A DNA stretch of 64,000 nt from an uncultured delta proteobacterium (lineage in GTDB: Bacteria > Myxococcota_A > Polyangia > Polyangiales > Polyangiaceae): assembly GCA_963839305.1 (NCBI GenBank), contig CAWIUL010000011.1, positions 2,633,561 through 2,697,560 on the forward strand, written 5' to 3'. The notes under the pieces were generated by a model. That model worked only from the letters and a program-made list of their open reading frames with translations, was not told where the DNA came from and ran no database searches. The translations under genes and the position numbers were made by a program. Below, one piece after another: positions 14,757 through 54,204 of the stretch. Numbering within the stretch: the first letter of the stretch is position 1; each line of letters begins with the position of its first letter.

Positions 14757-15083
14757 ATGGAGGAACGCCGTCAATTTCGACGACTGCAAGTTCCCGTCTA
14801 CTGCCGCGCAGCCGGCATGGAGGTGATGACGCGTCGTCACCCGATCGACTTGAGCCTCGGCGGCGTTCGTATCTACAGCGATCAGCGCTTCGCCAAAGGC
14901 GAGCTTTTGACCCTCGAGCTCATGACCGTCGATGCCCCCGCGAGCACCTTCACCGCCGAGGTCATGTGGATCGAAGACCTCCCAGCTGGATCCCCCGCTC
15001 TGTACGATGTTGGCCTGAGATTCCGCAGCGTTGACCCCACCCAGGCCACCGCGCTGGAGCGGATGTTGGCGAAATCCGAGTAG
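14757..15083 (+). CDS. PilZ domain protein.
   Basis: PilZ c-di-GMP-binding motifs RRQFRR and DLSLGGVRIY. 108 aa. Confidence 0.8.
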   Translation: MEERRQFRRLQVPVYCRAAGMEVMTRRHPIDLSLGGVRIYSDQRFAKGELLTLELMTVDAPASTFTAEVMWIEDLPAGSPALYDVGLRFRSVDPTQATALERMLAKSE

Positions 15084-15177
15084 TTTCGACCACATCGCAC
15101 CCACGAAAACATTTCGGCACCTCGGAGTACAAGGTGGGATAGGTTGTCATGGGCTTTGCATCAGCCTCCCTACTAAG

Positions 15178-17064: not shown

Positions 17065-17826
17065 TCACGTTACCCTCTTGCTTGGTCCGCCGCGCATCTG
17101 GCGCAAGACCACGAGCGCGAACTCGGGATCACGCAGCAGATAGCGGCGCCAGAGACGCTTCGGCTCGCGGCCGAGCCGGTAGAGCCACTCGAGCCCTGCG
17201 CGCGACATCCACTGCGGCGCGCGCGGGACCACGCCCGCGAGGAAGTCAATCGTCGCGCCGACGCCGAGGAGCACCGCGGGCTTCACGCGCTCGGCGACGG
17301 CGTAGGCGAAGAGCTCCTGCTTGGGCGCGCCGAGGCCGACGAGCACGAGGTCCGGCTCGGCGCGCGCGATCGTCTCCGCGAGCTCGCGGTGCGCGTCGAG
17401 CGACGCGCTCGCCCGCACACGCGGAGACGAAAAACCTGCGACGCGAATATGTCGCTCCTCGAGCGCGCAACTTGCACGCTGTGCGCTGCCCTCGTGGCCG
17501 CCGAGGAGGTACACGCGCCAGCCGCGTTCCGCTGCGCGTTCGAGCAAGGCCGGCACGAGATCCGAGCCGGATATCTTCTCGGGCAGCGGCTCGCGTAGCG
17601 CGCGCGAAGCCCACAAGACGGGCATCCCGTCGACGACCGAGAGGCTCGCGTGCTCGTAGGCCTCGCGAAAAGCCACGTCGTGCTCGGCCATGACGACGTG
17701 GTCCACGTTCGGCGTGAACACAGTGCCGCCAGTCTTGTCGTCGATCATGCGCTCGATGGCCGCGAGGGCGTCGGCGAAGGTCACACGATCGATGGGCAGG
17801 CTTCCGATTCGAACCCGATCCTTCAC
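17065..17826 (-). CDS. WecB/TagA/CpsF family glycosyltransferase.
   Basis: Family-typical full-length sequence. GTG start overlaps the stop of the upstream gene (GTGA). Confidence 0.85.
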   Translation of the reverse strand: MKDRVRIGSLPIDRVTFADALAAIERMIDDKTGGTVFTPNVDHVVMAEHDVAFREAYEHASLSVVDGMPVLWASRALREPLPEKISGSDLVPALLERAAERGWRVYLLGGHEGSAQRASCALEERHIRVAGFSSPRVRASASLDAHRELAETIARAEPDLVLVGLGAPKQELFAYAVAERVKPAVLLGVGATIDFLAGVVPRAPQWMSRAGLEWLYRLGREPKRLWRRYLLRDPEFALVVLRQMRGGPSKRVT

Positions 17827-19460
17827 GATGGAGCGGAGTCTTTCTTGTGCAAAGACCCGGCCACGCGCTGCGTCACGCGTGGGTGGACTTCGGCATCGGG
17901 CGCGCTCACGAGCGAGCCCGGCGGGACGTCGTCGCGGACCACGCAGCTCGCCATGATCTTCGAGTCTTCGCCGATCGTGATCGGTCCGAGGAGCGTCGCG
18001 CCCGGTCCGATGTGGACGTTGCGGCCAACGTTCGGCGCGCCGGTCGCAGATCGGCCGGAGGCGGCCTGCGCAGCCGTGGATGCCGACTCGCCGAGCGTGA
18101 CGTTGTGAAAGAGGATCGCGTCTTTCCCGACGCGGGCCTTCGGCGAGATCGCGAGGCCCATGCCGTGGACGATCTGCACGCCGGGCTCGATCTGCGCGTC
18201 CCAGTGGATGTCGGAGCCGTAGAGGTGGCGGATGAGGCGCGACGTGATCATCGCGAGCGGCGTCGCGCCCGCGTCGCGGAAGAAGTGCATGAGCCTCACG
18301 GCGACCATGATCTGGAAGCCGATTCGGACGACCGCGTCGCGCGGAAGATCGCCCTCGTCGCCGTCGCGGCCGCCGTATTTCGCGCCGTAGTGGCGGAGCG
18401 TCGCGTGGTCCTGGCGGACTGCCTCGCGCAGCTGGCTCGCCGCGACGAGCGTTCGTTCCGTGCGCGACGCGGGGCCCGCGCGGCGCGCGTAGTCGAGCCA
18501 GTCGGTGATCGCGTTGCCGATCGCGCCCGCCTCGGCGCGCATGCCGCGCGCGTACTCGAGCCCGAAGACGAGCGTCATGCCGCGGAGCGCCGCGCGCTCG
18601 AGGCCCGCGCGCTCGAGCCGCGACGCGAGCGCGACGGCGGCGGTCGCGAGCTTCTCACCCGCGCCGGGCGCCGCCAGCGAGAGGACGAGGAGCGGTCGCG
18701 AGAGCGACGAGAGCTCGCGGAAATAGCGCCACGGGCTCGCGTGCGGCGCGTCGGGGTGCTTCTTGCCGATTCGCGAGTCGAACGTGCCGTACGCCTTCGC
18801 GCGCTTGCGAAAACCCGCGAGGCTGTCGCGGTCGGACGAGTGGATGCTCGCCGCGACGTCGCTCAGGTAGAACGTCGCGCCGTTCTTCTCGAGGCGCACG
18901 CCGAGCTCGGCGTCCTCGGAGTGGCCTAGCGTCGCGTCGAAGCCGCCCGCGCGGAGGTACGCGTCGCGCTTCATCGAGAGGTTGCCCGTGTAGACGTTGG
19001 GCCCGCGAAACGTCACCTTGCCCGAGATCACGTCGTTCGCGAAGCGCTCGAGGACGTCCGCGTGGAAGCGCTCGAAGAGCTCGAGCTTCATCTCGGGGTC
19101 CGGCTTGATGCGACCGAGCACGACCGCGTTCGGATCGCGATCGTGGATCGCGAGGTGCGCGGCGACGAGGCCCTCGTGGACCTGCATGTCGTCGTCGAGG
19201 AAGAGGATCACCGGGCCGCGCGCGCGTGTGACGCCACGGTGTCGCGCGGCCGCGGCTCCCGCGTTCTCTTGGCGCTCGACGACGAGCGTGAACGGGACGT
19301 CGAGGGCGCGGAGGCGCGGCGTCGGATCCTCGCGCGAGCCATCGTCGATGATCACGACCTCGAGATCGCTCGCGACCGTCTGCGCGGCGAGCTGGCGCAC
19401 GAGGCGCTCGATCGAGGCGCCGCGGTTGTAGGTCGCAACGACGATGGAGGCGCGTATCAC
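17823..19460 (-). CDS. Family 2 glycosyltransferase fused to a C-terminal serine-acetyltransferase-like hexapeptide domain.
   Basis: N-terminal GT-A fold (SIVVATYNRG, DDGS, DDD). The C-terminus resembles CysE: helical region plus a left-handed beta-helix with GVQIVHGMGLAI...G. No stop between the two domains. GTG start with GGAGG 9 nt upstream. GTGA overlap. Confidence 0.75.
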   Translation of the reverse strand: MIRASIVVATYNRGASIERLVRQLAAQTVASDLEVVIIDDGSREDPTPRLRALDVPFTLVVERQENAGAAAARHRGVTRARGPVILFLDDDMQVHEGLVAAHLAIHDRDPNAVVLGRIKPDPEMKLELFERFHADVLERFANDVISGKVTFRGPNVYTGNLSMKRDAYLRAGGFDATLGHSEDAELGVRLEKNGATFYLSDVAASIHSSDRDSLAGFRKRAKAYGTFDSRIGKKHPDAPHASPWRYFRELSSLSRPLLVLSLAAPGAGEKLATAAVALASRLERAGLERAALRGMTLVFGLEYARGMRAEAGAIGNAITDWLDYARRAGPASRTERTLVAASQLREAVRQDHATLRHYGAKYGGRDGDEGDLPRDAVVRIGFQIMVAVRLMHFFRDAGATPLAMITSRLIRHLYGSDIHWDAQIEPGVQIVHGMGLAISPKARVGKDAILFHNVTLGESASTAAQAASGRSATGAPNVGRNVHIGPGATLLGPITIGEDSKIMASCVVRDDVPPGSLVSAPDAEVHPRVTQRVAGSLHKKDSAPS

Positions 19461-19990
19461 GTCTTGACGCCTCCTCGCGCCGGCATCTTCACGGTCTGAT
19501 GAGCGGGATCGGGCGCCTTCGCCGTCGCTTCGCTCGGGGCGGGCTGCGCGACCTTCGCGCGTGACTTCTTGCGCGCGAGGATCGTCCCCACGAATTTGTC
19601 GTGGCCGATCTCTTCGACGGTCTTCACTGCGGCCTTCATCGGCGTCTCGCCGAGGCGCACGACGAGCACCGCGGTGTCCGCTCCCTTCGCGAGCGCGATC
19701 GAAGTCGGGTTCTGCTGGATGGACGCGAGCGCGATGATCACGCAGTCGCCCTTCTTCACGTGCTCGTCGATTTCCTTCTTGTGGTAGTCGACGAGGCGCA
19801 TCGTGATGTCGCGCAGATCGAGCACGACGGTGGGCTCGCCGCGGTATTGCCACGCGACCTCGGCGATCGCGCTCGCGACGTCGAGTGACGCGATTTGGCG
19901 CATCGTGGGTACGACGGCGAGCACGCGCCACGTCTTCTTCTGCAGCGCGAGCCAGAGGCTTTGGAGCTCGAATTCTGCTTCGGGGGTCAC
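19457..19990 (-). CDS. Degenerate BY-kinase-like (ParA/MinD-fold) domain protein lacking the Walker A motif.
   Basis: Fold-like pattern VLAVVPTMRQIASLDVASA...VVLDLRD in place of the PGEGKST P-loop. GTG start overlapping the GT2 stop. Lies between a GT2 and the PCP gene, the position typical for the Wzc kinase half. Confidence 0.55.
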   Translation of the reverse strand: MTPEAEFELQSLWLALQKKTWRVLAVVPTMRQIASLDVASAIAEVAWQYRGEPTVVLDLRDITMRLVDYHKKEIDEHVKKGDCVIIALASIQQNPTSIALAKGADTAVLVVRLGETPMKAAVKTVEEIGHDKFVGTILARKKSRAKVAQPAPSEATAKAPDPAHQTVKMPARGGVKT

Positions 19991-21198
19991 TTCGCGGCCT
20001 TCTCCCTCGTCGTACGAACCCACGTGCTCGGTCGGTCCGACGCGGCCAGTCCGAGCTTCCAGACGACGTACACCGGCGCCCACGCGAGGTCGAGCGCTGC
20101 CCGCGGCCCGAGCCGCGTGAGCTGAACACCACGGAAGACGTACGCGCCGACCATGGCGCCCGCGACGGTCCACGGGATCCACGCGACCGGGCGCGAGCCG
20201 GTCGCGATCGCGAGGGCTGCCGTGATCGCGGACGCGCCGAGGCCGAGTACGATCGAAACACCGAGCTTCGAGAGCGGCGGCGTCAGGAGATCGGCGCCGA
20301 GGTCGAACAGCATCGCGTTGCGCTCGACGATACCGCGCTTCAAGAGGCGCCAGCCGTGCTTGTCCGTGAGCTCGCGGCGGCCTTCTTCCCAGCGTTGCCG
20401 CTGCGAGCGCGCGGCCTTGCCCGTCGAGACCATCTCGCCGAGCACCGCGGCCTCGCCCACGTACGCGACGCGATGGCCCGCTTCGCCGAGGCGAATGCCG
20501 TACTCGACGTCCTCGACGATCGAGAACGCGTCGTGAGGGACCTCTCGGAGGACGCTGCACGCGAAGCCCATCCCGTTTCCGCGCAGGCCGCACGAGACAC
20601 CGAGTCGCTCGCGCGCGTTCGAGCGCACCACGTGGAAGAGCGACATCGCGATGACCATGAGCCGCGTGCGCCAAGAGGCCTCCGGGTTTCGCACGCCGTA
20701 CTCGGCTTGCACGGCGACCTCGCCCGCGGAGAAGCGCGCGGCGAACGCCATGAGCAGGTTCTTCGTGACGCGCGTGTCAGCGTCGACCACGACGACGGCG
20801 TCGGCGTGACCTCGAGCGAGCGCCTCTTCGAACGCGCGCGCGAGCGCGTAGCCTTTGCCGCGTTTCTCCGCGTCGACGCGCTCGATCACCTCGGCGCCAG
20901 CCGCTCGTGCGCGAGACGCGGTGGCGTCGCTGCAGTTGTCCGCGACGACCACGACGCGAAAGCGATCGCGCGGATAGTCCACGGCGAGCAGGCTCGCGAC
21001 GGTCTCGGCGATGTTCGCCTCCTCGTCGTGCGCGGGGACGATCACGTCGAAGTACGGGCGCTTGCCGTTCGCCTTGGGCGCCGCCTTCGGCTTCGACAGC
21101 GCGGTGAGCGCGCCGAGGTAGCCGGACGCGGCGAGCGTGGGGAGTGACGCCGCGGCTACCGCGCCGTCGAGGAGCCGAAAGGCGGTCCGGAGTCTCAC
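19987..21198 (-). CDS. Family 2 glycosyltransferase, membrane-anchored.
   Basis: DVIVPAHDEE, VVVADNCSD, VVVDAD, QRQRWEEG (QxxRW), C-terminal TM helices. GTG at 21198 overlaps the PCP stop. An alternative ATG lies at 21249. Confidence 0.8.
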   Translation of the reverse strand: MRLRTAFRLLDGAVAAASLPTLAASGYLGALTALSKPKAAPKANGKRPYFDVIVPAHDEEANIAETVASLLAVDYPRDRFRVVVVADNCSDATASRARAAGAEVIERVDAEKRGKGYALARAFEEALARGHADAVVVVDADTRVTKNLLMAFAARFSAGEVAVQAEYGVRNPEASWRTRLMVIAMSLFHVVRSNARERLGVSCGLRGNGMGFACSVLREVPHDAFSIVEDVEYGIRLGEAGHRVAYVGEAAVLGEMVSTGKAARSQRQRWEEGRRELTDKHGWRLLKRGIVERNAMLFDLGADLLTPPLSKLGVSIVLGLGASAITAALAIATGSRPVAWIPWTVAGAMVGAYVFRGVQLTRLGPRAALDLAWAPVYVVWKLGLAASDRPSTWVRTTREKAAK

Positions 21199-22676
21199 GT
21201 CTCGAGCTCCCCCAGGATCGGCAACTTGAGCTTCCGCTCGACCTGCCACGGTTCGACGATGACCCCGAGGCGCCGCTCGCGCAGCACGACGCCGCCGAAC
21301 GCGAAGACGAAGATCGCGAACGCGATGCCCAAGAAGAGCGCGATCGGGTTGGGGTTACGCGGGCGCCTCGTGACCTCGGCGGGGTGGACGATGCTGAAGC
21401 GGTATTTGTGCGCCGTCTTCGCGATGTCGAGCTCGATCTGCGCGCCGTCGATGCGGTTCTCGAGATCCGCGTATTTCTGGGCGCATTGCTGCAATTTCAT
21501 CTGCGCGACGGTGACCGCGGGATCCTCCTCCATGATGAGCCGCGAGCTCGGCGAACCCGTGAGCGCGGCGATCGTCGCGGCGGACGAGTGCGTCGTCGAC
21601 GCCGCGGCGATCGCGGTCGCGAGCGGCGGCGCGTTCACGGCCACCTTGTCGATGAGCGCGCGCTCCTCGTTGCGCAGGCGCGCGAGGTCCGGCGGCTCGG
21701 CCTGAGCCTCCACGAGCTTCTGCTTGAGCGCGACGACCGTCGGGTGCTCGGGCCTGTACTGAACGAGCGCGTCCGAGAGCTGCTTGTTCAGCTCGTTGAT
21801 GCGCTGCGTGCGCTGCGACTCGACCTGTTGGATCTCGTTGCGCTTGTCCTGGAGCGCTTGGAGGAGCGCGGGATCGACGGCCGGCGCGTTGGCGCTTGCC
21901 TTCGGCGCGGGCGGCGCCATGAAGCGCGGCTGAGCGACCGCGTTGTTCGCCTTCGCCGCCGGTTTCTTCTTCATCTCCAGCGACTCGAACTCGTCGCGCG
22001 CCTCGTCGAAATGCGACTTCTCCTCTTTCGCGTGCTGCTGCAGAATGTCGATCGCGTCGTTGATGACGCTGATCTCCGCGTCGTAGCGCGCGTCGATGAA
22101 GTTCTTCTCGACCGCGGAAGCGAGGTCATACGCCATCTGCGCGTCGGTCCACTCCGCGGTGATCGTGATCGTCGTGTCGTCGCTCGTGACGGTGAGCCGC
22201 TTCTCGAGCACTCCTTCGATCGCTCGCATCCGGTCTTGCTCATCCGGCCGTCCCGCGAGCTTCTCGGTGACGCGATCCCTCCAACGGAGGAGGGTCGGCC
22301 GCGACCCCGCCCACCGGTCGACGAGGTTCACTTGCTTGATGAGCCCGACGAGGTTGTCGTGCTGGAGGATCGTGTCGCCGACGTTCTTCGTGGGGTTGTC
22401 GGCCTCGCGCGGGACGGTGCGGTTCGGGTTTCCGAGCGCGGGGAGCACCAGGTTGCGCTGCGCGAGGATTTTCACCTCGGTCGAATACGTCCGCGGGTAG
22501 AGGACGAACAGCGCACCGCCCAGACCGAGCGACAGCACGAGGAGGGCGATGAACCTGTACGGGTTCCTCCTCGGAGCGCGCAGCACGTAGCCGACGAAGT
22601 CGGAGATGGCGTGTAGGTCAAGCCCCTCCTCTTCCTCCTCGTCTTCGTGCCGATTGTGATCTTCGCCTTTGGGCAT
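21195..22676 (-). CDS. Polysaccharide co-polymerase (Wzz/Wzc periplasmic domain) protein without a kinase domain.
   Basis: N- and C-terminal TM helices flank a long coiled-coil periplasmic region. Acidic N-terminus. Ends right after the second TM. Confidence 0.8.
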   Translation of the reverse strand: MPKGEDHNRHEDEEEEEGLDLHAISDFVGYVLRAPRRNPYRFIALLVLSLGLGGALFVLYPRTYSTEVKILAQRNLVLPALGNPNRTVPREADNPTKNVGDTILQHDNLVGLIKQVNLVDRWAGSRPTLLRWRDRVTEKLAGRPDEQDRMRAIEGVLEKRLTVTSDDTTITITAEWTDAQMAYDLASAVEKNFIDARYDAEISVINDAIDILQQHAKEEKSHFDEARDEFESLEMKKKPAAKANNAVAQPRFMAPPAPKASANAPAVDPALLQALQDKRNEIQQVESQRTQRINELNKQLSDALVQYRPEHPTVVALKQKLVEAQAEPPDLARLRNEERALIDKVAVNAPPLATAIAAASTTHSSAATIAALTGSPSSRLIMEEDPAVTVAQMKLQQCAQKYADLENRIDGAQIELDIAKTAHKYRFSIVHPAEVTRRPRNPNPIALFLGIAFAIFVFAFGGVVLRERRLGVIVEPWQVERKLKLPILGELET

Positions 22677-22742: not shown

Positions 22743-23159
22743 ATGTACGCCGCAGTCGGTTTCGACCTCGTCGACGTACGTGAGGTGCAAGACTCTATCG
22801 ATCGCTTCGGTGAGCGATACCTCACGCGCGTCTACACGCCAGCGGAGATTGAGTACGCGATGAGCGCGCCCGATCGCGCGACGGCAGCGCGCAGGCTGGG
22901 GGCGCGCTTCGCTGCCAAGGAAGCCACGATCAAAGCGCTCGGCGCGAGCGAGCGGGGCATTAGTCCTCGCGAGATCGAGGTCGCGAGGAGTGCTGACGGC
23001 GCGATCCGGATCATCTTGCACGGTCCGGCATTTGCTGCAGCTCGGGAAGTGGGTGCAACGGCGTTCGTCGTCAGTGTGTCGCATCAAGGCGATTTGGCGG
23101 GCGCAGTCGTAGTCATGGAGAAAAAGCCGACGAGTCGAATCAGGTGGAAGAAGAAATGA
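22743..23159 (+). CDS. 4'-phosphopantetheinyl transferase (AcpS-type).
   Basis: AVGFDLVDVREV...RF...EA..KA.G. AcpS-size (138 aa). Confidence 0.8.
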   Translation: MYAAVGFDLVDVREVQDSIDRFGERYLTRVYTPAEIEYAMSAPDRATAARRLGARFAAKEATIKALGASERGISPREIEVARSADGAIRIILHGPAFAAAREVGATAFVVSVSHQGDLAGAVVVMEKKPTSRIRWKKK

Positions 23160-23404
23160 ACGATCGCATTCGGACGATTTTGAAGGAACACGGACGCCTC
23201 GCTGTGGAAATATCGACACTCGCCGACGACGCGGACTTATACGAAGCGGGAATGACCTCGCACGCGAGCGTCAACGTGATGCTCGCCCTCGAAGGCGCGT
23301 TCGACGTGGAGTTCCCCGACCGCATGCTTCGGCGCGGCGTCTTCGAGAGCGTCGTGGCGATCGCCACCGCGCTGAACGAGCTCACCCAAGGGAAGGCATC
23401 ATGA
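23156..23404 (+). CDS. Acyl/aminoacyl carrier protein.
   Basis: About 82 aa with a four-helix pattern. Ser in DLYEAGMTSHASVNVMLALE. The ATG at 23156 overlaps the PPTase TGA. Confidence 0.75.
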   Translation: MNDRIRTILKEHGRLAVEISTLADDADLYEAGMTSHASVNVMLALEGAFDVEFPDRMLRRGVFESVVAIATALNELTQGKAS

Positions 23405-24561
23405 GCGAAACAGTCGAGCTGGTCGCGCGGATTGGCCGTGAGGTCGCCGCGCCGAACGCTGATTCAGTCGATCGAGAGGCCCGCTTTCCGACCGAAGCGA
23501 TCGACGCGCTGAAGAAGGCGAAGCTGATGAGCACGCTCGTGCCGCGCGCCCTCGGCGGTCACGGCACCGGGATGATCGAGCTCGCCGCGATGTGCGAGGC
23601 CCTCGGCCAGCACTGCGCGTCGACGGCGATGGTCTTCGCGATGCACCACATCCAAGTGGCGAGCATCCTCCGCCACGCGATGAAGCAGCCGTATTACGAG
23701 CGCTACGTCGCGGAGCTCGTCGAGAAGCAGCCGCTCATCGCGTCGGCGACGAGCGAGGTCGGCATCGGCGGCGAGATGCGGACGAGCCGCTGCGCCGTGG
23801 TCCGCGACGAGGACGCGCGGTTCAAGCTCGACAAGGACTGCTCGACGATCTCGTACGGCGCCCAGGCCGACGACATCTTGTTCCAGGCTCGGCGCGGGCC
23901 GGACTCGCCGCCGAACGATCAGATCTTCGTCCTCGTGCGAAAGCCCGAGTGCACGCTCACGCAGAAGGGCAACTGGGACACGCTCGGCATGCGCGGGACG
24001 TGCAGCCCGCCGTTCATGCTCGAATCGAGCGGCGAGGTCGGTCAGATCTTCGACACGCCGTTCTCCGACGTCGCGAGCGAGACGCAGGTGCCGTTCAGCC
24101 ACGTGCTCTGGTCGAACGTGTGGCTCGGGATCGCCACGGCCGCCGTCGGCCGGGCGCGCGCGTTCGTGAGGCAGCAAGCGCGCGCGAAGCCCGGCACCGT
24201 GCCGCCCACCGCGCTCCGCCTCGCGGAGGCCTCGAGCATGCTCCAGACGATGCGCACCAACGTGCACGACGTCGCGAGCGAGTGCGACCGCTTGATGCAC
24301 GACGACAAAGAGGGCACCGCCGCGCTCTCGTCGATCGGGTTCGCGCTCAAGATGAACAACCTGAAGGTGAGCTCGTCGCAGCTCGTCGTTCAGATCGTGA
24401 ACCATGCGCTCTCGATCTGCGGGATCATGGGCTACAAGAACGACTCGAAGGTGTCCGTCGGACGCCACCTGCGCGACGCGCACTCCGCCGCGCTCATGGT
24501 CGGAAATGACCGCATCTTCGCGACCAACGCGTCGATGCTCCTCGTTCTCAAAGACGATTGA
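23401..24561 (+). CDS. Acyl-CoA / acyl-ACP dehydrogenase family protein (FkbI-like).
   Basis: Full-length ACAD fold. ATGA overlap with the carrier-protein gene. Confidence 0.8.
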   Translation: MSETVELVARIGREVAAPNADSVDREARFPTEAIDALKKAKLMSTLVPRALGGHGTGMIELAAMCEALGQHCASTAMVFAMHHIQVASILRHAMKQPYYERYVAELVEKQPLIASATSEVGIGGEMRTSRCAVVRDEDARFKLDKDCSTISYGAQADDILFQARRGPDSPPNDQIFVLVRKPECTLTQKGNWDTLGMRGTCSPPFMLESSGEVGQIFDTPFSDVASETQVPFSHVLWSNVWLGIATAAVGRARAFVRQQARAKPGTVPPTALRLAEASSMLQTMRTNVHDVASECDRLMHDDKEGTAALSSIGFALKMNNLKVSSSQLVVQIVNHALSICGIMGYKNDSKVSVGRHLRDAHSAALMVGNDRIFATNASMLLVLKDD

Positions 24562-24569
24562 GGCAAACC

Positions 24570-25475
24570 ATGTCGTACTCGCCGCAGGAGCTCTACGAAG
24601 GGCTCGTCTCGAACAGGTTGATCATCCCCGTCGGCGTGCAGGGCATCTTCGGGCGCGGCCCGGTGTTCGAGGAAGTCCTCGCGCGGTTCGACGACTACGT
24701 CTCGCGCGTCGCGAAGGACGACGGCGCGGAGAAGATGATGTTCCCGCCCACGCTCGACCGAAGGGTGTTCGAGAAGGTCGAGTACATGGACTCGTTCCCG
24801 CATTTGTCGGGCGTGATCTTCTCGTTCAAGGGGACCGAGCGTCAGGCGCTCGAGCTCGGCGCGAAGATCCACGCGGGCGAAAACTGGGACGGGCTCATGG
24901 CGTCGACGGAGTGCGTGCTCACGCCGGCCGCTTGTTATCCGGTCTATCCGAGCTTCGCGGGGACGGTGCCCGAGCAAGGTCGGCTCGTCGACATGCAAAA
25001 CTGGGTGTTCCGTCACGAGCCCTCGCCCGAGCCGACGCGCATGCAGGCGTTCCGCGTTCGCGAGTTCGTCCGCGTGGGAACGCCCGACGTGGTCCTCGCG
25101 TGGCGCGACATGTGGCTCGAGCGCGGGCTTCAAATCATGAAGTCGCTCGGGCTGCCCGCGAAGAGCGACGTCGCGAGCGATCCGTTCTTCGGCCGCGGCG
25201 GCAAGATGCTCGCTGCGAACCAGAAGAACGCGCGGCTCAAGTTCGAGGTGCTCGTGCCCGTCATCTCCGAGGAGAACCCGACGGCGCTCTGCTCGTTCAA
25301 CTGGCACCAAGAGCACTTCGGTCAGGTGTTCGACATCAAGACGACGGACGGCGCCGTCGCCAACACCGCGTGCCTCGGCTTCGGCATGGAGCGCGTGTGC
25401 ATGGCGCTCTTCAAGCACCACGGGTTCGATCCCGCGAAGTGGCCAGCCGAGGTGCGCGCGAAGCTCTGGCCATGA
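24570..25475 (+). CDS. Amino acid--[carrier protein] ligase: truncated class-II aaRS (atypical SerRS-like) catalytic core.
   Basis: Class II motif 2 (FRVREFVRVGT) and motif 3 (GFGMERVCMALF). Cys residues (ACYPVYP) resemble the Zn site of methanogen-type SerRS. No tRNA-binding domain. About 300 aa. Adjacent to the carrier protein and the PPTase. RBS GAGG upstream of the ATG at 24570. The track ORF begins with TTG at 24558. Confidence 0.7.
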   Translation: MSYSPQELYEGLVSNRLIIPVGVQGIFGRGPVFEEVLARFDDYVSRVAKDDGAEKMMFPPTLDRRVFEKVEYMDSFPHLSGVIFSFKGTERQALELGAKIHAGENWDGLMASTECVLTPAACYPVYPSFAGTVPEQGRLVDMQNWVFRHEPSPEPTRMQAFRVREFVRVGTPDVVLAWRDMWLERGLQIMKSLGLPAKSDVASDPFFGRGGKMLAANQKNARLKFEVLVPVISEENPTALCSFNWHQEHFGQVFDIKTTDGAVANTACLGFGMERVCMALFKHHGFDPAKWPAEVRAKLWP

Positions 25476-26461
25476 GCGCCATCGTCCACGCCCTGCCGCG
25501 CATCGACGCGTCCACGTACGCGCCCCACGAGCTCCATCGCGGCGAGCGCGCCTGGGGCGAGTCGAACTGTTACATCGACGTGTGGATCGAGGTGCTGAAC
25601 GCGCTCGGGTGCGATCCGCACGCGTGCCTCTCGTTCGTGACGAGCCTCGACTGGGAGGGCGATCAGTTCACGTTCTTCAAGCCGCCGCACGAGGATCTCT
25701 ACGAGCTCTACGGCGTCGACATCCAGGAGCTCACGATCTACAGGCCGCTCGTCGAGAACGCGATCGAGCAGCTGAAACAGGGCAAAATCGTGCTCTCCGA
25801 GATCGACGCGTACTACCTGCCGGACACCGCGGGCACGGACTATCGCGCGCAGCACACGAAGACGACGATCGGGATCCAGGAGATCGATCTCGAGGCGCGC
25901 ACGCTCGGGTACTTCCACAACTCGAGCTACCACGTGCTCGAAGGCGCGGACTTCGTCGGGCTCTTTCGGCTCGACGCGGCGCCTGACCCGACCTTCATGC
26001 CGTTCTTCGCCGAGCTCGTGCGGACGAAGCGCGTCGTGCGCCACGAGCCGCGCGCGCTCGTCTCGCGCTCGGTCGCGCTCTTGAAGAAGCACCTCGCGCG
26101 GAGGCCCGACCAAAACCCGATCCCGCGCTTCGCGGAGACGTTCAAGGCAGACATCGAGCGCCTCAAAAGCGAGGGGCTCGCCGCGTATCACCTCTACGCG
26201 TTCGCCACGATTCGCCAGCTCGGCGCGGCGTTCGAGTTCGCCGCGCTCTACCTCCGCTGGCTCGAGCGAAACGGCGAGGGCGATCTCGAGCCCAGCGCGC
26301 TCGCGTTCGACGCGATCTCGAGCGTGTCCAAATCGCTCGTGTTGAAGGCCGCGCGCGCCGTGGGCGCCAAGAAGGACGTGGACCTTTCGTCGATGCTGCA
26401 CGAGATCGAGTCGCAGTGGACGAGCGGGATGACGCACCTCGCGAAGCGGTACGGCGTGTGA
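25472..26461 (+). CDS. Conserved hypothetical protein (329 aa), co-transcribed with the aa:CP ligase.
   Basis: ATGA overlap with the ligase stop. No motif recognised. Confidence 0.6.
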   Translation: MSAIVHALPRIDASTYAPHELHRGERAWGESNCYIDVWIEVLNALGCDPHACLSFVTSLDWEGDQFTFFKPPHEDLYELYGVDIQELTIYRPLVENAIEQLKQGKIVLSEIDAYYLPDTAGTDYRAQHTKTTIGIQEIDLEARTLGYFHNSSYHVLEGADFVGLFRLDAAPDPTFMPFFAELVRTKRVVRHEPRALVSRSVALLKKHLARRPDQNPIPRFAETFKADIERLKSEGLAAYHLYAFATIRQLGAAFEFAALYLRWLERNGEGDLEPSALAFDAISSVSKSLVLKAARAVGAKKDVDLSSMLHEIESQWTSGMTHLAKRYGV

Positions 26462-26462
26462 G

Positions 26463-28857
26463 ATGAGGCTCGACGAGGGGTGGGAGATGGCGCTCGGAGC
26501 GCCCGTGGCTTGGAGACCGATCCCACGCGAGCGATTCGGCACCGTCGCGCGCGTCCTCGGAACGACCCTCGACGGCGACGTGACCGATTTCGACGCGACC
26601 GAGGTTTGGTATCGCAAGCGGCTCGCGCCCGGCGAGACGGGCGATCTCCTGAGGCTCGGCGGTCTCGCGACGCTCTGCGACGTGCGCGTCGACGGCGAAG
26701 AGGTGCTCCGCACGGACAACATGTTCGTGGAGCACGAGCTCACCGTCGCGCGACCCGCGCGAGATCGAGCTTCACTTTGCGCCGCTCGCGAAGGCGCTCG
26801 CCGAGCGTCGTCCGCGCCCGCGGTGGAGGGCGACGATCGTGGCGCAGCAGCAGCTCCGGTGGTTTCGCACGAGCCTGCTCGGGCGGATCCCGGCGTGGAC
26901 TCCGCCGATCGCGCCGGTGGGACCGTGGCGGCCCATCACGCTGGAAAGGGCGTCGCCCATCGCCGCGCACGACCTCAAGACGCGACTCGAAGGGCGCGAC
27001 GGCGTGGTCGAGGCCACGATCGCGCTGCGAGGCGACGTGAAGACCGTCGAGCTCGCCGTGGGCGAGCATCGCGCGACCCTCGAGGTCGACGGCGTCGCGC
27101 GCGGCACGCTGCGCGTCCCGAACGCGCCGCTCTGGTGGCCGCACACGCACGGTGCGCAGCCCCTCCTTCCGGTGCGCGCGCGGGTCGACGGAGCCGACTT
27201 CGAGCTCGGCGCGACCGGGTTTCGCAAGCTCGACGTCGATCAGCAGGGCGGCGCGTTCACGCTGCACGTCAACGGCGTTCGCGTCTTCGCGCGCGGCGCG
27301 TGCTGGACGCCGCTCGACCCGATCGGCCTCGGCGCCACGAAGGCCGAGCTCCGCGCTGCGCTGACGCAGGTGAAGCGCGCGGGGATGAACATGGTCCGCC
27401 TCTCGGGGACGATGGTCTACGAGTCGCGAGACTTCCACGAGCTGTGCGACGAGCTCGGGATCCTCGTCTGGCAGGACTTCATGTTCGCGAACATGGACTA
27501 TCCGATCGCGGACGAGCGCTTCGCCGCGTCCGTGCGCCGCGAAGCGACGCAGGCGATGTCGCGTCTTCAGCTCTCACCGAGCCTCGTCGTGTGCTGCGGC
27601 GGAAGCGAGGTCGAGCAGCAAGCGGCGATGATGGGGCTGCCCGAGAAGGACTGGTCGAGCCCGCTCTTCGCGGAGGTCTTGCCGGGGATCGTGCGCGAGG
27701 CGCGCCCCGACGTCGCGTACGTGCGCTCGACCCCCGCCTCGCATTTGGGGGGCGGCGTCCTGCCTTTTCACGTCGATCGCGGCGTGTCGCATTATTACGG
27801 CGTCGGCGCGTACCTTCGCGATTTCGACGACGCGCGGCGCGCGCGCGTGCGCTTCACGTCCGAGTGCCTCGCGTTCGCGAACGTGCCGCGCGACGAGACT
27901 ATCGAGGCGCTCATGCGCGACGGTGAGTCGCCTCCGAACCACCCGCGCTGGAAGAGCCGCGTGCCGCGCGACCGCGGCACGCCGTGGGACTTCGACGACG
28001 TGCGCGATCACTACGTGAAGGAGATCTTCGGCGTCGATCCACGCGCGCTCCTCTTCGGCGACGGCGCGCGGTACCTCGAGCTCGGGCGCGTCGCGACGGG
28101 CGAGGCGATGGCCGCGGCCATGAGCGAATGGCGTCGCGCGGGGTCCGAGTGCGCGGGCGCGCTCGTGTGGTTCCTGCGCGATCTGTGGGACGGCGCGGGT
28201 TGGGGCGTCATCGACGCGCGCGGCGCGCCCAAGGCGGCGTACCACCACTTGAAGCGCGTCCTCGCGCCCGTCGCGCTGCTCGCGATCGACGAAGGGCTCA
28301 ACGGGCTCGCGCTCCACGCGGTGAACGACGCGCCGAGCGCGATCGACGCGGAGCTCCGCGTCGCGCTTCATCGTGGCGAGGGGATCGTCGCCGAGGGCAC
28401 GCGCGCCGTCGCGCTCGGAGCGCACGACGCCATCGCCGTCTCCGCGGACGAGGTCATCGGCCGCTTCACGGACGTCACCTACGCGTATCGCTTCGGGCCG
28501 CGCGGTCACGACGCCACGCTCGCGACGCTTCGCGATCGCGCGAGCGGCGCGCTCCTCGGGCGCGCGTTTCATTTCCCGCGCGGCGCTCGCGCAGAGCGCG
28601 CGAGCGATCTCGGCCTCGAGGCACGCGCCGAACGCGTCGACGAGGGCTCGTGGAGGCTCACGGTGCGCACGAAGAAGGTCGCGTACGCGGTCGCCATCGA
28701 CGCGCGCGGATTCGTCGCCGACGACGACTTCTTCCACGTGGCGCCCGGCGACACTGGCGCGTTCTCGACCGTGCTCACGGGGCGAGGCGACACGATCTCG
28801 GGGACGGTTAAGGCGCTCAACGCCACGACGCCGACGAAGATCGTTTGCGCGCGTTGA
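26463..28857 (+). pseudogene. Glycoside hydrolase family 2 (beta-mannosidase-like), reading frame broken near 26750. Pseudogene or sequencing indel.
   Basis: The N-terminal sugar-binding domain is in frame 26463 (…TDNMFVEHELTVA). The rest is in the frame of ORF 26839..28857 (…REIELHFAPL…, GH2 TIM-barrel). The switch falls within about 26745-26760. Confidence 0.65.
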
Positions 28858-28888: not shown

Positions 28889-29698
28889 ATGACGGCAGTA
28901 CAAGACGCGCTGAATCGTTCGACGTGGTCGCAGCGCTCGTCGCGACGCTGGCTCGACTCGGTGCGCGACTTCACCGACCCTGGCGAGGAGGCGGCGCTCG
29001 CGGTCGTGCGCGAGCGCGCGCGCGGAAAGCCGATCCTCGACCTCGGCGTCGGCACGGGCCGAACGATACCGATGCTCGAGCCGCTCACGCACGATTACCG
29101 CGCGATCGACTATCTGGAGGGGATGGTCGACGCGTGCCGAGCGCGTCACCCGCGCGTCCGCGTCGAGCTCGGTGACGCTCGGGCGCTCGACGGCGTGCCT
29201 GACGCCCACTTCGGCCTCGTGAATTTCAGCTTCAACGGGATCGACGCGGTCGATCACGACGATCGCACGCGCGTGCTCGGCGAAATGCGGCGCGTCGTTC
29301 GCCGCGACGGATACGTCCTGTTCTCGACGTTGAACCTGGACGGCCCCGCGTTCCGCGAGCGGCCTTGGACGCCGCGCGCTGCGACCCAGTGCAGCCTGCC
29401 CCGCGCGGCCGCGCGCACCGCCATCGCGCTCGCGAGCGTGCCCTTCGACGTCGCGCGGTGGATGCGCATTCGTCCTGGCGCGCATCGCGGCGACGGTTGG
29501 GCGATCGCGCCGCTCAGCGCGCACCACTACGGCGTGCTCGCGCACTTCACGACACTGGAGCGCGCGCTCGAGGAGCTCGCGAGCGCGCGACTCGATCGGG
29601 ACGTCGTCGTCCTCGAGAACACGCGAGGGGCTCACGTGAAGCCTGGCGACGACACGAGCGACGCGGACTGGTTCCACTTCGTCGCGCGCCCGGCCTAG
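28889..29698 (+). CDS. Class I SAM-dependent methyltransferase.
   Basis: Motif I ILDLGVGTGR, plus post-I and motif II regions. Confidence 0.8.
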   Translation: MTAVQDALNRSTWSQRSSRRWLDSVRDFTDPGEEAALAVVRERARGKPILDLGVGTGRTIPMLEPLTHDYRAIDYLEGMVDACRARHPRVRVELGDARALDGVPDAHFGLVNFSFNGIDAVDHDDRTRVLGEMRRVVRRDGYVLFSTLNLDGPAFRERPWTPRAATQCSLPRAAARTAIALASVPFDVARWMRIRPGAHRGDGWAIAPLSAHHYGVLAHFTTLERALEELASARLDRDVVVLENTRGAHVKPGDDTSDADWFHFVARPA

Positions 29699-30326: not shown

Positions 30327-30974
30327 TCACGGTGGCGATTCTCCTCGAGCGAACGCGGCGAGTGAATCGAAAGTCCGCGGGCGCGCGAACAGGTCGTGCG
30401 GGAAGCTCACGCCGAGCTCCTTCTCGAGCGCGACGAGCACTCGAAGCGCGGCGAGCGAGTCGAAGCCGCGCGCTCTCCGCACGTCGCTCGCGTCGTCGAG
30501 CTCCGCGGCGGCCGCGACGATGCGGCAGACCACGTCGCGCACGCGCTCGCGGGTCGCGTCCTTCGCCGGCGCGCCGTTCGCCTTCTGGGCGTGGGGCATC
30601 TCGCCGGTGCCGGTCACCACCGCCCCATCAGCGATCCACGCGTTGTCGGCGATCGAGAGGTCGCCCGCGATCTCGTCGTCGACGATGCACCCGACGCCGA
30701 TGCGCGCGCCGCGACCGACGACGACGCGACCGCGCGCGCGGATCACGGCGCCGCTCTCGATGAGCGCGTCTTCGCCGATCTCGAGCTACGCGCCCGGGCG
30801 TACGACGATCGTGATCGGCGCGGGCGTCGACACGAGCACCGCGCGCGCCCCCACGACGAGCGCTCCCTCCACTGCGACGCTCGGCATCCCCAGCACCCGA
30901 ACGCCCGAGCCCACGCGAGCGCCGAGCGTGAAGCGCGCGCGCGCGGCGTCCAAGCGCCCGGCCACGGCACGCAC
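30327..30974 (-). pseudogene. Hexapeptide-repeat acyltransferase fused to a C-terminal acyl carrier protein, interrupted by an in-frame TAG at 30786-30788.
   Basis: ORFs 30786..31103 and 30327..30746 share a frame. Hexapeptide repeats continue across the TAG. The C-terminal 80 aa are a canonical ACP (GFDSLAALRVLVALEKELG). Probable GTG start at 30974. Confidence 0.6.
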
Positions 30975-30988: not shown

Positions 30989-32524
30989 TCAAGCGAGCCC
31001 CTCGACGGTCACGAGCGAGCGCGCCCCGGGCATTTCGCCGAGGTCCACGCGCCACGCCTCGCCGTCTCGCGCGAGCCGCGCGCGCGCGAAGAAATCGACG
31101 CACGGCTTGTTCTTCTTCGTCGGGATCGGCTCGACCGAGAGAGAGAGCGCGCGCTGAGCGCCTTCGCGCGCGACACCGCCGCCCAGAGGATCGTCTCCTC
31201 GACTCGGCGCCCCATCACGCGGCAGCTCAAGAGGTAATCCTCCAGCGTCGCGCGATCGCCCTCGCGCGAGACGCCGAAGAGGCCCGTCAACCCTGCGTCG
31301 CCGAAGCGGTCGGAGACGTGCGCCGCCCAGACCTCGTGGCCAGGAGCGGCGGCCCACGCGAGGAGCTCGCTCTCGCTCATGCGGCGCGTGCGGAGGTTCA
31401 TCTGGTTCGTCTTGTTGAGGAGCTGCGCGGCGCGCGCGACGTTGCCCTTCGCGACGCGCTCGAAGCGAACGACGAGACCGAGCGTCGCGAGCCAGTCGTC
31501 GATCGACGTCGACACGCTGCGTAGCGCGGTCCGCTGGCGCTCGGTCGCGTACATCGCGTTGCGCTCGAGGTCCTCCTTGCTCACGTGCGGCGTGTCGAAG
31601 CAGCGAAGCGACTCCAGCGCGCGGCCGTAGTGCGTCGGGTCGAGCGCCCACTCCGGCACGTAGACCTCGGGCAACGCCTCGCTGACGCGGCCGCGTTCGA
31701 CGGGGTTGTCGTCGATGAACACGACCGACTGAAGGCCGAGGTTCAGCTCCGTCGCGATCTCGACGATGTTACGCGCCTTGTCGCTCCAGTTGATGCGATA
31801 CGAGGCCAGCATCTCCGGCCGGATGATCATCTCCGGGCGCCCAGACGAACGCGAGATCGACTTTCGAATCGCGCGAGCCGAGCCCGATGAGCGTGGGGAT
31901 CACGTGGTCGAACGGCGCGACCTCGGCCTCGATGGAGAGGCCGTCGAAGTCGATGTCCGCGAGCTTGTGGGCGAGCTCGTCGATCGTGAAGTCGGCGGCG
32001 AGCACTGCGCGGACGCGCGTCATCGTGGGCGCGCCTCGCACGGTTTGTGCAGCGAAAGGGGCGTGTTTGGCCGGCGCGCGTTGCTCGGAGGGGACGGTGG
32101 ATCCGGGTGGCACTACTGCGCCCCGTGGCACGACGCAGCCCGCGACGATTCGCGCGCCCGCGCCGATGCGTACGCCCGCTTCGATCGTGATCGCCGAGGA
32201 GACGCCGTCCGCGCCGCGGTCGCATATCGTCACGTTGGGGCCAATGATCACGTCCTGGTGCACGCGCACCTCAGAGTCCGAGAAGATGGCGACGCCGGGC
32301 TCGATCGTGACGCGCTCACCGATCGTGATCGTTCCCGCGTTGGTGGTCGCGAGGCGAACCGGCGAGGCGCTCGAGTGGATCGTGACCTCGTCTCCGATCT
32401 CGATGCGGCCCTCGTTGCGAACGAGCGGGCGGCCCGAGACGCGAACGTCGCGTCCGACGCTGTCGCAATCGTCCAGGCGCAGCATCGCGGAGAGGCCACG
32501 AAGCATCATGAGCGGTGCGATCAT
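30989..32524 (-). pseudogene. LbH (hexapeptide) domain fused to an FkbH-like (HAD-IIIC) domain, with two apparent frameshifts.
   Basis: LbH repeats run from the ATG at 32524 (ITIGERVTIEPGVAIF...). The FkbH-like N-terminus (IDFDGLSIEAEV...SKVDLAFVWA) is in the frame of ORF 31769..32932. The central part (RINWSDKARNIVEIATELNLGLQSVVFIDDNPVERGRV) is in the frame of ORF 31009..31830. The C-terminus (VEPIPTKKNKPCVDFFARA) is in the frame of ORF 30989..31651. Shifts fall near 31835 and 31140. Confidence 0.55.
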
Positions 32525-32566
32525 CGAGCGTTCGACGTCAGAGCACGGAGCATGCCGTGTCCTGTG

Positions 32567-34356
32567 GTACTCTGCCGGGTCGCCCTGTGAGCACTGCGCA
32601 CGCGTTTTGGTTCGGGCCGAAAGGACGGCGTGCGTTCGGTTGGTTTCATCCACCGGTGGGGAAGGCGCGCGCTCTGGGCGTCGTCTTGTGTCCGCCGCTC
32701 GGTCACGAAATGTTGTGCACGCATCGCGCTTATCGTCACCTCGCCGAAGGTCTGGCCGAGCTCGGATTTCCGGTTCTGCGCTTCGATTACCACGGGACAG
32801 GCGATTCGCCAGGGGGCGATCGTGACGAGGATCGCGTCGGCGCGTGGCTCGGGACGATCGACGACGCGATCGAAACGCTGAGGCAGACGGGGATCGCGCG
32901 CGTGGCGCTCTTCGGCATGCGCGTCGGCGCAACCTTCGCCGCTGCGGCCGCCGCGCGACGCGGCGGGGTCGACGAGCTCGTGATGGTCGCGCCGTGCGTC
33001 TCTGGCGGCACGTTCCTCCGCGAGCTCCGCGCGTTGCACAAGCTCCGCGAGCGCGGCGAGGCGAGGCCGCCCTTCCACGGACAGCGCGAGGGCGACGAGG
33101 AGGCGATCGGCTTCGTATTCCGGCGCGAGACGATCGAGGCGCTCGCGAAGGTGGACTTTCGCACGCTCGCCACGAAGCCCGCGGCGCGCGCGATGATCGT
33201 GCCGCGCGACGACATGCCTGGCGGGGAGACGCGCATCGCGGACCGCCTCCGCACGCTCGGCGTCGACGTCGAGGTCGTTTCGGCGCCGGGCTACGCGACC
33301 GCGGCGAGCGACGATCCGTACGTCGCCGAGGTGCCCACGGAGATCTGGCGCGCCGTGACGGCCTGGCTCGAGCGCGCGAACCCGGAGAGAGACATCACTC
33401 ACGCGAGCCCGGAGGGCGACAAGGTCGAGCCGATCGACTCGCGCGTCGTCGAGTCCGCGATCCGCTTCGGCGAAAACGACCGGTTCTTCGGCGTCCTCAG
33501 CGAGCCCATCGGATCGCGCAGCGAACTCGCGGTCATCGTTCCAAACACGGGCGCGAACTCGCGCGTCGGGACGAACCGCTTCAACGTCGCGCTCGCGCGT
33601 CGCCTCGCTTCGCGCGGGCACGCGGTCCTTCGCATGGATCTCGGGGGAATCGGCGACAGCGCACCGCACGACGGCGCGCGAGAAAACGACCTGTTCGCGG
33701 ATCGGTCGATCGCCGACGTGCGCGCCGCGATCGACGCCACCGCCGCGCGCGGATACCGCCACTTCGTCACGATGGGTCTCTGCGCCGGCGCGTACATGTC
33801 CTTCCACACGGGCCTCACGGATCCGCGCGTCGCGGGGATGGTTCTGATGAACCCGCCCGCGTTCGAGTGGACGCCGGGGCGCAAGGTCGAGCGCATCGTG
33901 ACGCGGCCACACGGCAACGTGCGTTCGATGCGCTACTACCGAAATCGCGCGCTCCGGCTCGACACGTGGCGTCGGCTCGCGCGCGGCGAGGTCCAAGCCG
34001 GCGCGATCGGTCGCGTGCTCGCGGCGCGCGCGAGAGGTCGCGCCGCGACGGCGGTGAAGCGCGCGGCGATCATCCTCGGTCGTCCCGAGTGGGTGATGAG
34101 CGATCTCGCGCAGAAATTCACGGCCCTCGTGCTGCGCCGCACCCGCGTGCTCTTGTTGTTCAACGACGAGGAGGCGATGCTCGACGAGCTCGACAAACAC
34201 CTCGGCGGCCTCATGGTTTGGCTGACGAAGCGCGGCGTCGAGCTCGAGACCATCGACAACACCGATCACATCTTCGCGCCCGTGTGGTCGCAGGAACGCG
34301 CCTCGGACGTCCTCACGGACTTCATCGATCGGGTGGCGAGGGAGAAATCGCGATGA
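32567..34356 (+). CDS. Tandem alpha/beta-hydrolase fold protein (two hydrolase domains).
   Basis: Two repeats of an alpha/beta-hydrolase core, with nucleophile-elbow-like GMRVGAT and GLCAGAY. A GTG start at 32567 with GGAG upstream was chosen over the longer ORF, which overlaps the divergent gene. Confidence 0.6.
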
Positions 34357-49936: not shown

Positions 49937-50024
49937 GGAGAGGTGACCGAGTGGCCGAAGGTACTCGCTTGCTAAGCGAGCGTAGGTCAAAAGCCTACCG
50001 CGGGTTCGAATCCCGCCCTCTCCG
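49937..50024 (+). tRNA. tRNA-Ser (anticodon GCU).
   Basis: Cloverleaf: acceptor GGAGAGG/CCTCTCC, anticodon stem CTCGC/GCGAG with loop TTGCTAA, long variable arm, T-arm GCGGGTTCGAATCCCGC. Confidence 0.9.
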
Positions 50025-53910: not shown

Positions 53911-54204
53911 GGGCTTCCTTTTGTAGTCTGCGAGTGCTACGAAGTCATCAGCGGGATTGTTCCCCGCTTTTGTGGCCTCATCGACTCGGAAGCGTGAACC
54001 CCGCCAGGCCCGAGAGGGAGCAACGGTAGCGTGGAAGGGTGTGATGGGGCCTTTGCCTTTAAGGGCCGAAGGCGCTAGACCAGCCTTCAGGGAGCTCCCT
54101 CCCCAAAGTTTTTCGGTTCCGTTGATGCCCTCGGGCATCCGGAGCTTTCCTCACCACCTCAAGCTTCCGGTCGTGCCGCTCTGCGGCAGACCTTTTCGAG
54201 ATCC

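Follow-up and report, generated by a model that had tools for sequence, protein, structure and literature searches.

Ligases of the amino acid:[carrier protein] type (aa:CP ligases) are represented by Bll0957 of Bradyrhizobium japonicum (Mocibob et al. 2010/2013) and Atu2573 of Agrobacterium tumefaciens. In a 2022 review the biological role of charging their carrier proteins was stated as unknown, and a preference of the ligases for glycine or alanine is given, in part, in a table of the same review (PMC9437257). In a note added in proof, Iyer et al. (Biol Direct 2010; PMC2922099) reported that genes for an acyl carrier protein (ACP), a redox enzyme, Atu2574, a glycosidase and lipo(poly)saccharide genes occur together, and predicted that the Atu2574-type protein links an amino acid through an amide bond to a cell-surface sugar, while the redox enzyme modifies the aminoacyl group. 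The supporting information of Ozhelvaci and Steczkiewicz (2023; PMC10318531) describes glycoside hydrolase family 2 (GH2), DUF1839, aa-ACP ligase, acyl-CoA dehydrogenase (ACAD) and ACP genes as a consistent neighbourhood, and Agrobacterium is among the hosts of DUF1839 in that survey. Here, an operon of this kind was analysed in a 64,000-nucleotide stretch of DNA (the window) from an uncultured delta proteobacterium of the Polyangiaceae (contig CAWIUL010000011.1, positions 2,633,561 to 2,697,560).

The window locus is a further example of a known, functionally unsolved operon type, and standard annotation already gives its genes the right names. In A. tumefaciens the gene for Atu2573 precedes those for Atu2574, a conserved protein of unknown function, and for a glycosidase, which is the operon type of the window (PMC2922099, PMC10318531). 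The earlier note on this DNA had assumed that a link between these ligases and sugars was undescribed; this was mistaken, as the link was predicted in 2010 (PMC2922099) and the neighbourhood is given in the 2023 survey (PMC10318531). A literature search yielded no functional study of the ligase, of Bll0957, of Atu2573 or of this gene combination, and no experimental follow-up of the 2010 prediction. The window alone is incremental as a discovery, the idea being already in print. New are the fold-level support for the 2010 prediction from structures solved in 2022-2025, a larger module with variants, atypical active sites in the ACAD homolog and in a tandem hydrolase, and the embedding in a Wzx/Wzy locus in Polyangiaceae. 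The reading put forward here, to which we give about an even chance, is that the locus represents, in a member of the Polyangiaceae, the widespread aa:CP-ligase operon of the Atu2573/Atu2574 type and acts by amide transfer to a sugar-containing acceptor.

An ORF check of the window showed five open reading frames (ORFs) between 22743 and 26461, all on the plus strand and at the same coordinates as in the earlier note, and each could be placed in a family without ambiguity. The ATGA overlaps, claimed for each junction, were present at three of the four (1/2, 2/3 and 4/5). At junction 3/4, between the ACAD and ligase genes, the TGA stop codon at 24559-24561 is followed by an 8-nt spacer with a GAGG sequence, and the ligase starts with the ATG at 24570, which is also the start in the public gene call. 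The G+C content of the window is about 68%. No sigma-70-like promoter and no intergenic terminator were found between 22400 and 29000; this is compatible with a single transcript but uninformative for a myxobacterium. A scan with Rfam gave no match in or near the cassette.

The fourth gene (24570-25475, + strand) encodes a protein of 301 aa that, as judged by homology, truly belongs to the aa:CP ligases, with a class II core derived from seryl-tRNA synthetase (SerRS) and lacking the tRNA-binding domain. It scored 410.8 bits against the NCBIfam equivalog NF005479 (cutoff 357), matched the Bll0957 crystal structures with an E-value of 3.4e-74 and shared 42% identity with Bll0957 across the entire catalytic core. 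Methanogen-type (type-2) SerRS was matched with an E-value of 1.6e-16 in the catalytic core only (query residues 113-295 against residues 310-505 of 3w3s). As the match is limited to residues 310-505 of the 527-aa SerRS, the tRNA-binding domain is absent from the 301-aa ligase. Motif 2 (FRHE...FRVREF) and motif 3 (GFGMER) were invariant in alignments with Bll0957 (8 and 7 sequences), and so were the zinc-site residues C122, E150 and C268 (likewise 8 and 7 sequences), which occupy the same Cys/Glu/Cys positions in Bll0957. The earlier description of the protein as a truncated, SerRS-like aa:CP ligase was thus borne out in its class II core similarity to both enzyme groups, its motifs 2 and 3, its zinc-site-like cysteines and its missing tRNA-binding domain. 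The ligase family is not restricted to the alpha-proteobacteria, as at least 591 species were matched when a genome collection was scanned with the ligase alignment. The closest relatives were proteins from Polyangiaceae metagenome-assembled genomes (MAGs), with 84-89% identity. Ligases associated with DUF1839 contain the motif C-[LV]-G-F-G (C-L-G-F-G in the window), whereas those of the Bll0957 type contain C-V-A-F-G. The amino acid preference of the two types may accordingly differ, and the shift relative to the glycine-preferring Bll0957 hints at a slightly larger amino acid substrate.

The dedicated carrier protein (82 aa) is encoded two genes upstream of the ligase (23156-23404, + strand), and its gene has an ATGA overlap with that of the AcpS-type 4'-phosphopantetheinyl transferase (PPTase; 22743-23159, + strand, 138 aa). 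The carrier protein scored 112 bits against NF005480/PRK07081 (cutoff 72) and matched PP-binding with 2.1e-6. The PPTase matched Pfam ACPS with 1.2e-15 and scored above the cutoff of both TIGR00556 (72 bits, cutoff 45) and TIGR00516 (61.6 bits). Priming of the carrier protein by the PPTase and its aminoacylation by the ligase can both be predicted securely, since close homologs have been characterised by biochemistry and structure.

To delimit the conserved unit, the best 80 loci from the genome scan were kept, and genes of the module were counted by tblastn with proteins of the window and of a syntenic relative in those 44 loci where the ligase is flanked by 7 kb or more in both directions. 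The ACAD gene was present in all 44 loci, the ACP and DUF1839 genes in 43 each, a GH2-like gene (about 800 aa) in 41, a tandem hydrolase gene (about 590 aa) in 34 and a GNAT gene in 6; a PPTase homolog adjoined the ACP gene in 27. The conserved unit thus exceeds five genes and takes in the GH2-like gene and the tandem hydrolase. The boundary at 26461 in the earlier note was set too early, since the adjoining GH2-like gene (26463-28857) belongs to the unit. The kept loci came from Polyangia, Haliangiales, Burkholderiales (Undibacterium, Ramlibacter, Rhizobacter), Steroidobacteraceae, Lysobacterales, Methylococcales, Gemmatimonadota and one alphaproteobacterium, and together cover Myxococcota, Gemmatimonadota and alpha-, beta- and gamma-proteobacteria. 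Secondary replicons of Azospirillum lipoferum, Mycetohabitans rhizoxinica, Rhizobium leguminosarum and Caballeronia carry the same ACP-ACAD-ligase-DUF1839-GH2(-hydrolase) operon in their annotation. All-against-all clustering of the ORFs of the loci gave no other broadly conserved partner besides a small Abhydrolase_2 protein, which adjoins the module in 23 loci, and an Acyl_transf_3 integral-membrane acyltransferase, which is encoded directly 3' of the tandem hydrolase in about 13 loci (L011, L012, L023, L030-L032, L061 and others). In M. rhizoxinica a gene annotated as 'acyltransferase' lies just upstream of the ACP gene, and in L030 (4747-7656) two ligase genes flank the DUF1839 gene.

The fifth gene of the cassette (25472-26461, + strand, 329 aa), listed earlier as a conserved unknown, does exist but belongs to Pfam DUF1839 (PF08893), which it matched with 2.2e-109 as its sole Pfam match. 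It is predicted to encode a papain-like, carrier-protein-dependent transacylase (amide synthase). The AlphaFold2 model calculated from an alignment of 32 homologs (pLDDT 89.6, pTM 0.88) has a bipartite fold with a papain-like alpha/beta domain at the N-terminus and a C-terminal helical domain. N32-C33-Y34 were invariant in the 32 sequences, as were H128, T131/T132 and H149, and Cys33 opens the first long helix (residues 33-44) of the model. By its modelled fold, and at that level only, DUF1839 is related to the papain-like transacylases CcbD, CtaG, BtrH and AsbE; it thereby appears to share its fold with enzymes that amide-link carrier-borne acyl groups to amines, including amino sugars. CcbD condenses proline tethered to a carrier protein with the lincosamide amino sugar, forming an amide bond by a ping-pong mechanism at a cysteine (PMC12945683). 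DUF6005, a family of petrobactin clusters found beside AsbD, was described as a remote homolog of DUF1839 (PMC10318531). The differences are nevertheless considerable. CcbD and LmbD are only 14% identical to DUF1839 in sequence, and CcbD has a Cys-His-Glu triad, whereas the site of DUF1839 was described in the 2023 survey as a permuted C(T/S)H triad (PMC10318531). The donor of the lincosamide enzymes is loaded by an A domain of the nonribosomal peptide synthetase type, here by a homolog of an aminoacyl-tRNA synthetase (aaRS). The other papain-like carrier-protein-dependent transacylases are served by ATP-grasp or ANL loading enzymes in antibiotic and siderophore pathways, and DUF1839 is a separate Pfam family.

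The third gene (23401-24561, + strand, 386 aa) encodes an ACAD-fold flavoenzyme with a non-canonical active site. Its N-terminal domain matched PF02771 (Acyl-CoA_dh_N) with 2e-14 and its C-terminal domains matched PF00441/PF08028 with about 2e-8; no NCBIfam equivalog was reached. The catalytic Glu is missing at both known positions: M-V-G (in LM[V/I][G/S]N) aligns with Y-E-G, and an invariant Ser233-His234 stands at the position of the IVD-type Glu (S-H versus E-R). The same pattern was present in 76 family members. The protein is about equidistant from true dehydrogenases and ACAD-fold oxygenases. Assignment as a nitrososynthase-type N-oxygenase was considered but not adopted, as KijD3 and DnmZ matched with about 1e-11 to 1e-12 and ordinary ACADs matched equally well or better. 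The homolog presumably tailors the tethered aminoacyl group by an oxidative reaction.

The window ACAD is 39% identical to the one encoded in Bradyrhizobium beside a Bll0957-type ligase (itself 90% identical to Bll0957). ACP, ACAD and ligase are the only genes which that locus has in common with the window, and it contains no GH2 gene. In the Bll0957-type locus L088 the fourth gene (11012-11893) encodes a protein of 293 aa without a Pfam match and without similarity to DUF1839. The idea that this is a cryptic DUF1839 protein was discarded, as hhalign gave a probability of 0.05; it is possibly a non-homologous replacement of the transferase. That the triad is the only shared part agrees with the proposal that ACP, ligase and ACAD produce an oxidised acyl-ACP building block, comparable to aminomalonyl-ACP or hydroxymalonyl-ACP, which another pathway would use, such as one for a lipid or polyketide. 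It agrees as well with ZmaI and FkbI, known ACAD homologs whose substrates are seryl or glyceryl units tethered to an ACP. We consider this proposal highly improbable, as the module has no conserved partner among ketosynthases, condensation domains or lipid-synthesis genes, and DUF1839, the GH2-like enzyme and the hydrolase would be left without explanation.

The GH2 beta-mannosidase-like gene (26463-28857, + strand) is frameshifted in the window. The ortholog in L001 (817 aa, no signal peptide) matched the beta-mannosidase structures 5n6u with 1.8e-54 and BtMan2A with 5.8e-49, and the window fragment gave 5.6e-44. Of the two catalytic Glu residues, the GGSE motif aligns with GNNE and TSEC with MSEY, the residue mutated to Ala in 6byg. 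Both were invariant in 56 homologs, none of which has a signal peptide. A Ser replaces the Asn that precedes the acid/base Glu in the ten commonest motif variants (36 of the 56 homologs), and no other residue appeared there. In the window, residues of about 12-111 of the L001 ortholog are encoded in frame +3 and residues 120-813 in frame +1. The break lies at 26750-26764 in a GC-rich variable loop, where an indel of 1 nt would restore the frame; the frameshift could be an assembly error or reflect a real pseudogene. Downstream of the GH2 position follows a lineage-specific accessory gene (28889-29698, + strand) for an S-adenosylmethionine (SAM)-dependent methyltransferase of 269 aa (Methyltransf_25/11), which stands at the same position in L001, L004 and L089 and occurs in about seven loci overall.

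The frameshift bears on the possibility that the module is decaying in this genome and no longer contributes to the polysaccharide. Decay would also agree with the FkbH/LbH gene nearby, which is in two frames relative to L001, with the loss of the GH2-like gene in L004, and with a degraded second copy (L073) in the MAG that carries L004. In that MAG (contig CAVSWE010000004.1) the two module copies lie about 110 kb apart, and the second gave only fragmentary matches. The five upstream genes, the hydrolase and the GNAT gene are, however, intact and tightly coupled, and where one base is gained or lost in a GC-rich variable loop, in DNA assembled from a metagenome, an assembly error is equally likely. 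The chance that the module is decaying is therefore regarded as very small.

The tandem alpha/beta-hydrolase (32515-34356, + strand, about 590-613 aa) consists of two alpha/beta-hydrolase domains. In 43 homologs R136, at the position of the nucleophile in the N-domain, and C423 (GxCxG) and D584-H585 in the C-domain were invariant. From these residues the C-domain is probably an acyl-S-enzyme transferase or thioesterase and not a serine esterase. The N-domain scored 105 bits against exosortase-A-associated hydrolase 2 (TIGR03101, below the cutoff of 202.75) and the C-domain 140.3 bits against exosortase-A-associated hydrolase 1 (TIGR03100, below the cutoff of 168.45). The hydrolase 1/2 pair associated with XrtA accompanies an ACP and an acyl ligase in exopolysaccharide (EPS) loci. 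In the window protein the domains match in the order 2 then 1, are fused and stand beside an aaRS-type ligase. The hydrolase gene is followed by a gene for a GNAT N-acetyltransferase (34353-34757, + strand, 134 aa; Acetyltransf_1/7/10), an occasional member of the module that occupies this place in L001, L004, L026, L068 and L089. It is weakly similar to the aminoglycoside N-acetyltransferases AAC(3)-I and AAC(6') and, on this similarity, could acetylate an amine on the sugar or on the transferred aminoacyl group.

In the Dlt (DltABCD) and AlmEFG systems D-Ala or Gly is loaded onto a small carrier protein by its own ligase and then passed on to an envelope polymer or lipid. The module shares with them this logic of aminoacyl transfer by a dedicated ligase and a carrier protein. 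They use, however, an ANL ligase and MBOAT/DltD or LpxL-type transferases, and have no flavoenzyme, papain-like transacylase or GH2 enzyme. The module could be taken as a Dlt- or AlmEFG-like system for envelope aminoacylation, in which aminoacyl-ACP is the donor, a lipid or glycan is esterified via the Cys-His hydrolase and, in loci that have it, the Acyl_transf_3 membrane protein, and DUF1839 and the GH2-like enzyme serve for editing or recycling. The minimal variants fit such a scheme: L090 (10001-12678) contains ACP, ligase and tandem hydrolase, and L050 the same genes plus a PPTase, while both lack ACAD, DUF1839 and GH2. A GT2 glycosyltransferase gene adjoins the minimal locus L090. The scheme also agrees with the invariant GxCxG and Asp-His residues, the Acyl_transf_3 gene 3' of the hydrolase in about 13 loci, the resemblance of the hydrolase domains to the exosortase-A EPS-associated pair, and weak matches of the carrier protein to a DltC model (2.3e-4) and of the hydrolase to a DltD-domain structure (1.9e-3). 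These weak matches are far below family cutoffs. A transferase of the MBOAT or LpxL type is missing from the module, neither the window cassette nor the majority of loci have Acyl_transf_3, ACAD-type tailoring has no counterpart in Dlt or Alm, and the module proteins have no signal peptides or transmembrane segments as far as inspected. Esterification of this kind is thus unlikely.

For amide transfer to a sugar-containing acceptor the following sequence of reactions can be proposed. The AcpS-type PPTase would turn the apo form of the 82-aa carrier protein into the holo form, after which the SerRS-derived zinc-site ligase would adenylate a small amino acid (Gly/Ala class) and thioesterify it to the phosphopantetheine arm. 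The ACAD-fold flavoenzyme, with Ser-His in place of the catalytic Glu, might then change the tethered aminoacyl group oxidatively. DUF1839, as a cysteine transacylase of the CcbD/CtaG fold, would take the acyl group onto Cys33 and join it by an amide bond to the amine of a cytoplasmic acceptor that contains a sugar. The GH2-like enzyme and the tandem hydrolase, with the Cys-His site of its second domain, may process or trim glycosides or shuttle acyl groups, and the GNAT and methyltransferase may cap the product. In this genome a Wzx/Wzy EPS locus appears to have captured the module, and the acceptor would most likely be an amino sugar of the repeat unit or of its precursor. It is a possibility, held tentatively, that the module in general is a thiotemplated glycan-tailoring machine, in which a ligase of aaRS origin, an ACAD-fold oxidase with a non-canonical site and a transacylase resembling CcbD jointly attach an oxidised N-acyl group of amino acid origin to an amino sugar in the precursor of a surface polysaccharide. 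If true, aa:CP ligases would thereby gain their first physiological function, and the amino-acid-substituted sugars of many bacterial glycans would have a possible route of synthesis. Structures and kinetics of aa:CP ligases have been available since 2010; the window locus and the comparative data turn the old prediction into an assayable scheme. The same operon is present in the tractable organisms A. tumefaciens, Azospirillum, Burkholderia multivorans and Mycetohabitans, which makes the question experimentally answerable.

The claim that the cassette lies beside glycosyltransferases of a Wzx/Wzy pathway was confirmed by Pfam and NCBIfam matches. Upstream are a Bac_transf priming transferase (15031-16551, + strand, 6.7e-68), a GT2 plus hexapeptide protein (17823-19454, - strand), a second GT2 protein (19987-21249, - strand) and, divergent from the cassette, an EpsV-like polysaccharide co-polymerase (PCP; 21195-22676, - strand), which scored 269 bits against NF041864 (cutoff 800). 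Downstream follow a Wzx flippase (Polysacc_synt; 35646-37136, + strand), a Poly_export/SLBB protein (37123-37710, + strand) and a Wzy_C polymerase/ligase (37791-39263, - strand). A 462-aa protein (39267-40655, - strand) gave a weak match to EpsX; together with the EpsV-like PCP, this makes the locus resemble the Myxococcus eps pathway. The Wzx/Wzy synteny around the module is common to the window, L001, L004 and L089, the ligases of which are 77-86% identical. Upstream synteny was seen in all three relatives, and in L089 Wzx, Poly_export and Wzy_C follow downstream in the same order as in the window. As the arrangement is kept in L001, L004 and L089, the embedding is stable within the Polyangiaceae lineage.

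Over the loci as a whole, recognisable polysaccharide genes were present within 10 kb in only about 15 of 84 and thus absent from about 69; the Wzx/Wzy embedding is lineage-specific and not general. This distribution agrees with the view that the module is autonomous and produces a soluble thiotemplated small molecule, such as an N-acylated amine or glycoside, that is unrelated to EPS, its Wzx/Wzy position being a lineage-specific insertion. The module is kept as a block while its flanks vary: in L003 it lies between pst/phoU and gatCA, and the copies of Azospirillum, Rhizobium and Caballeronia are isolated operons on secondary replicons. CtaG, AsbE and CcbD, moreover, all belong to small-molecule pathways. 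Against an autonomous pathway, the Polyangiaceae module stands in the middle of the locus, between the PCP and glycosyltransferase genes and Wzx/Wza/Wzy, and this order is kept across proteins that are 77-89% identical. Nearness to polysaccharide genes also recurs in unrelated lineages, and the clustering of ORFs gave no exporter or regulator conserved with the module. A product unrelated to EPS is on balance rather doubtful. The proposal of the earlier note, that an aminoacyl or oxidised acyl group is transferred to a sugar, is supported in part: the Wzx/Wzy context and the GH2 homologs speak for it, while most relatives have no glycosyltransferases nearby.

Several further points weigh against amide transfer to a sugar-containing acceptor. 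All steps past the formation of aminoacyl-ACP are inferred. DUF1839 had no PDB sequence match even at an E-value of 10 and no match to Pfam BtrH_N, and its site does not appear to follow the canonical Cys-His-Asp/Glu order. AziU3, from the crystal structure of the AziU3/U2 complex, is one of three structural neighbours of DUF1839. The product of this complex is an aziridine, and it is not known to act as an amide synthase. A hydrolytic GH2 enzyme has no obvious biosynthetic role, and the GH2-like gene, frameshifted in the window, is absent from L004, the closest species representative. The variants L055, L070 and L090 lack DUF1839 and GH2, so that the transfer itself could instead be the work of the tandem hydrolase. 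The majority of genomes have the module on its own, and genes for glycosyltransferases, flippases or amino sugars are not found close to it. Among the annotated genes of the window, which cover part of its ORFs, none encodes an aminotransferase or deacetylase as a source of a free amine on the sugar.

A second carrier-protein system is encoded on the minus strand between the cassette and the hydrolase (30327-30746 and 31009-31830, extending up to about 32480). It comprises a hexapeptide-repeat (LbH)/PP-binding fusion and an FkbH domain, the latter scoring 202 bits against TIGR01686, above the cutoff. The homolog in L001 is a single protein of 707 aa with a NeuD/PglB/VioB-like LbH (sugar N-acyltransferase) domain and an FkbH domain, the halves of which are found in the window in different frames (32482-31841 and 31836-31165). 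The domain content of this second route suggests a polysaccharide with unusual N-acyl amino sugars.

Among the other genes of the polysaccharide locus, a 405-aa ORF (19457-20674) gave no family match. A GH44 gene beside the Wzy gene (40660-42762, - strand, 9.7e-65) encodes a protein with an N-terminal signal-like sequence and may be a polysaccharide-processing enzyme of the locus. The sole Rfam matches in the window were a tRNA gene at 49937-50024 and a gene for the small signal recognition particle (SRP) RNA at 53968-54060.

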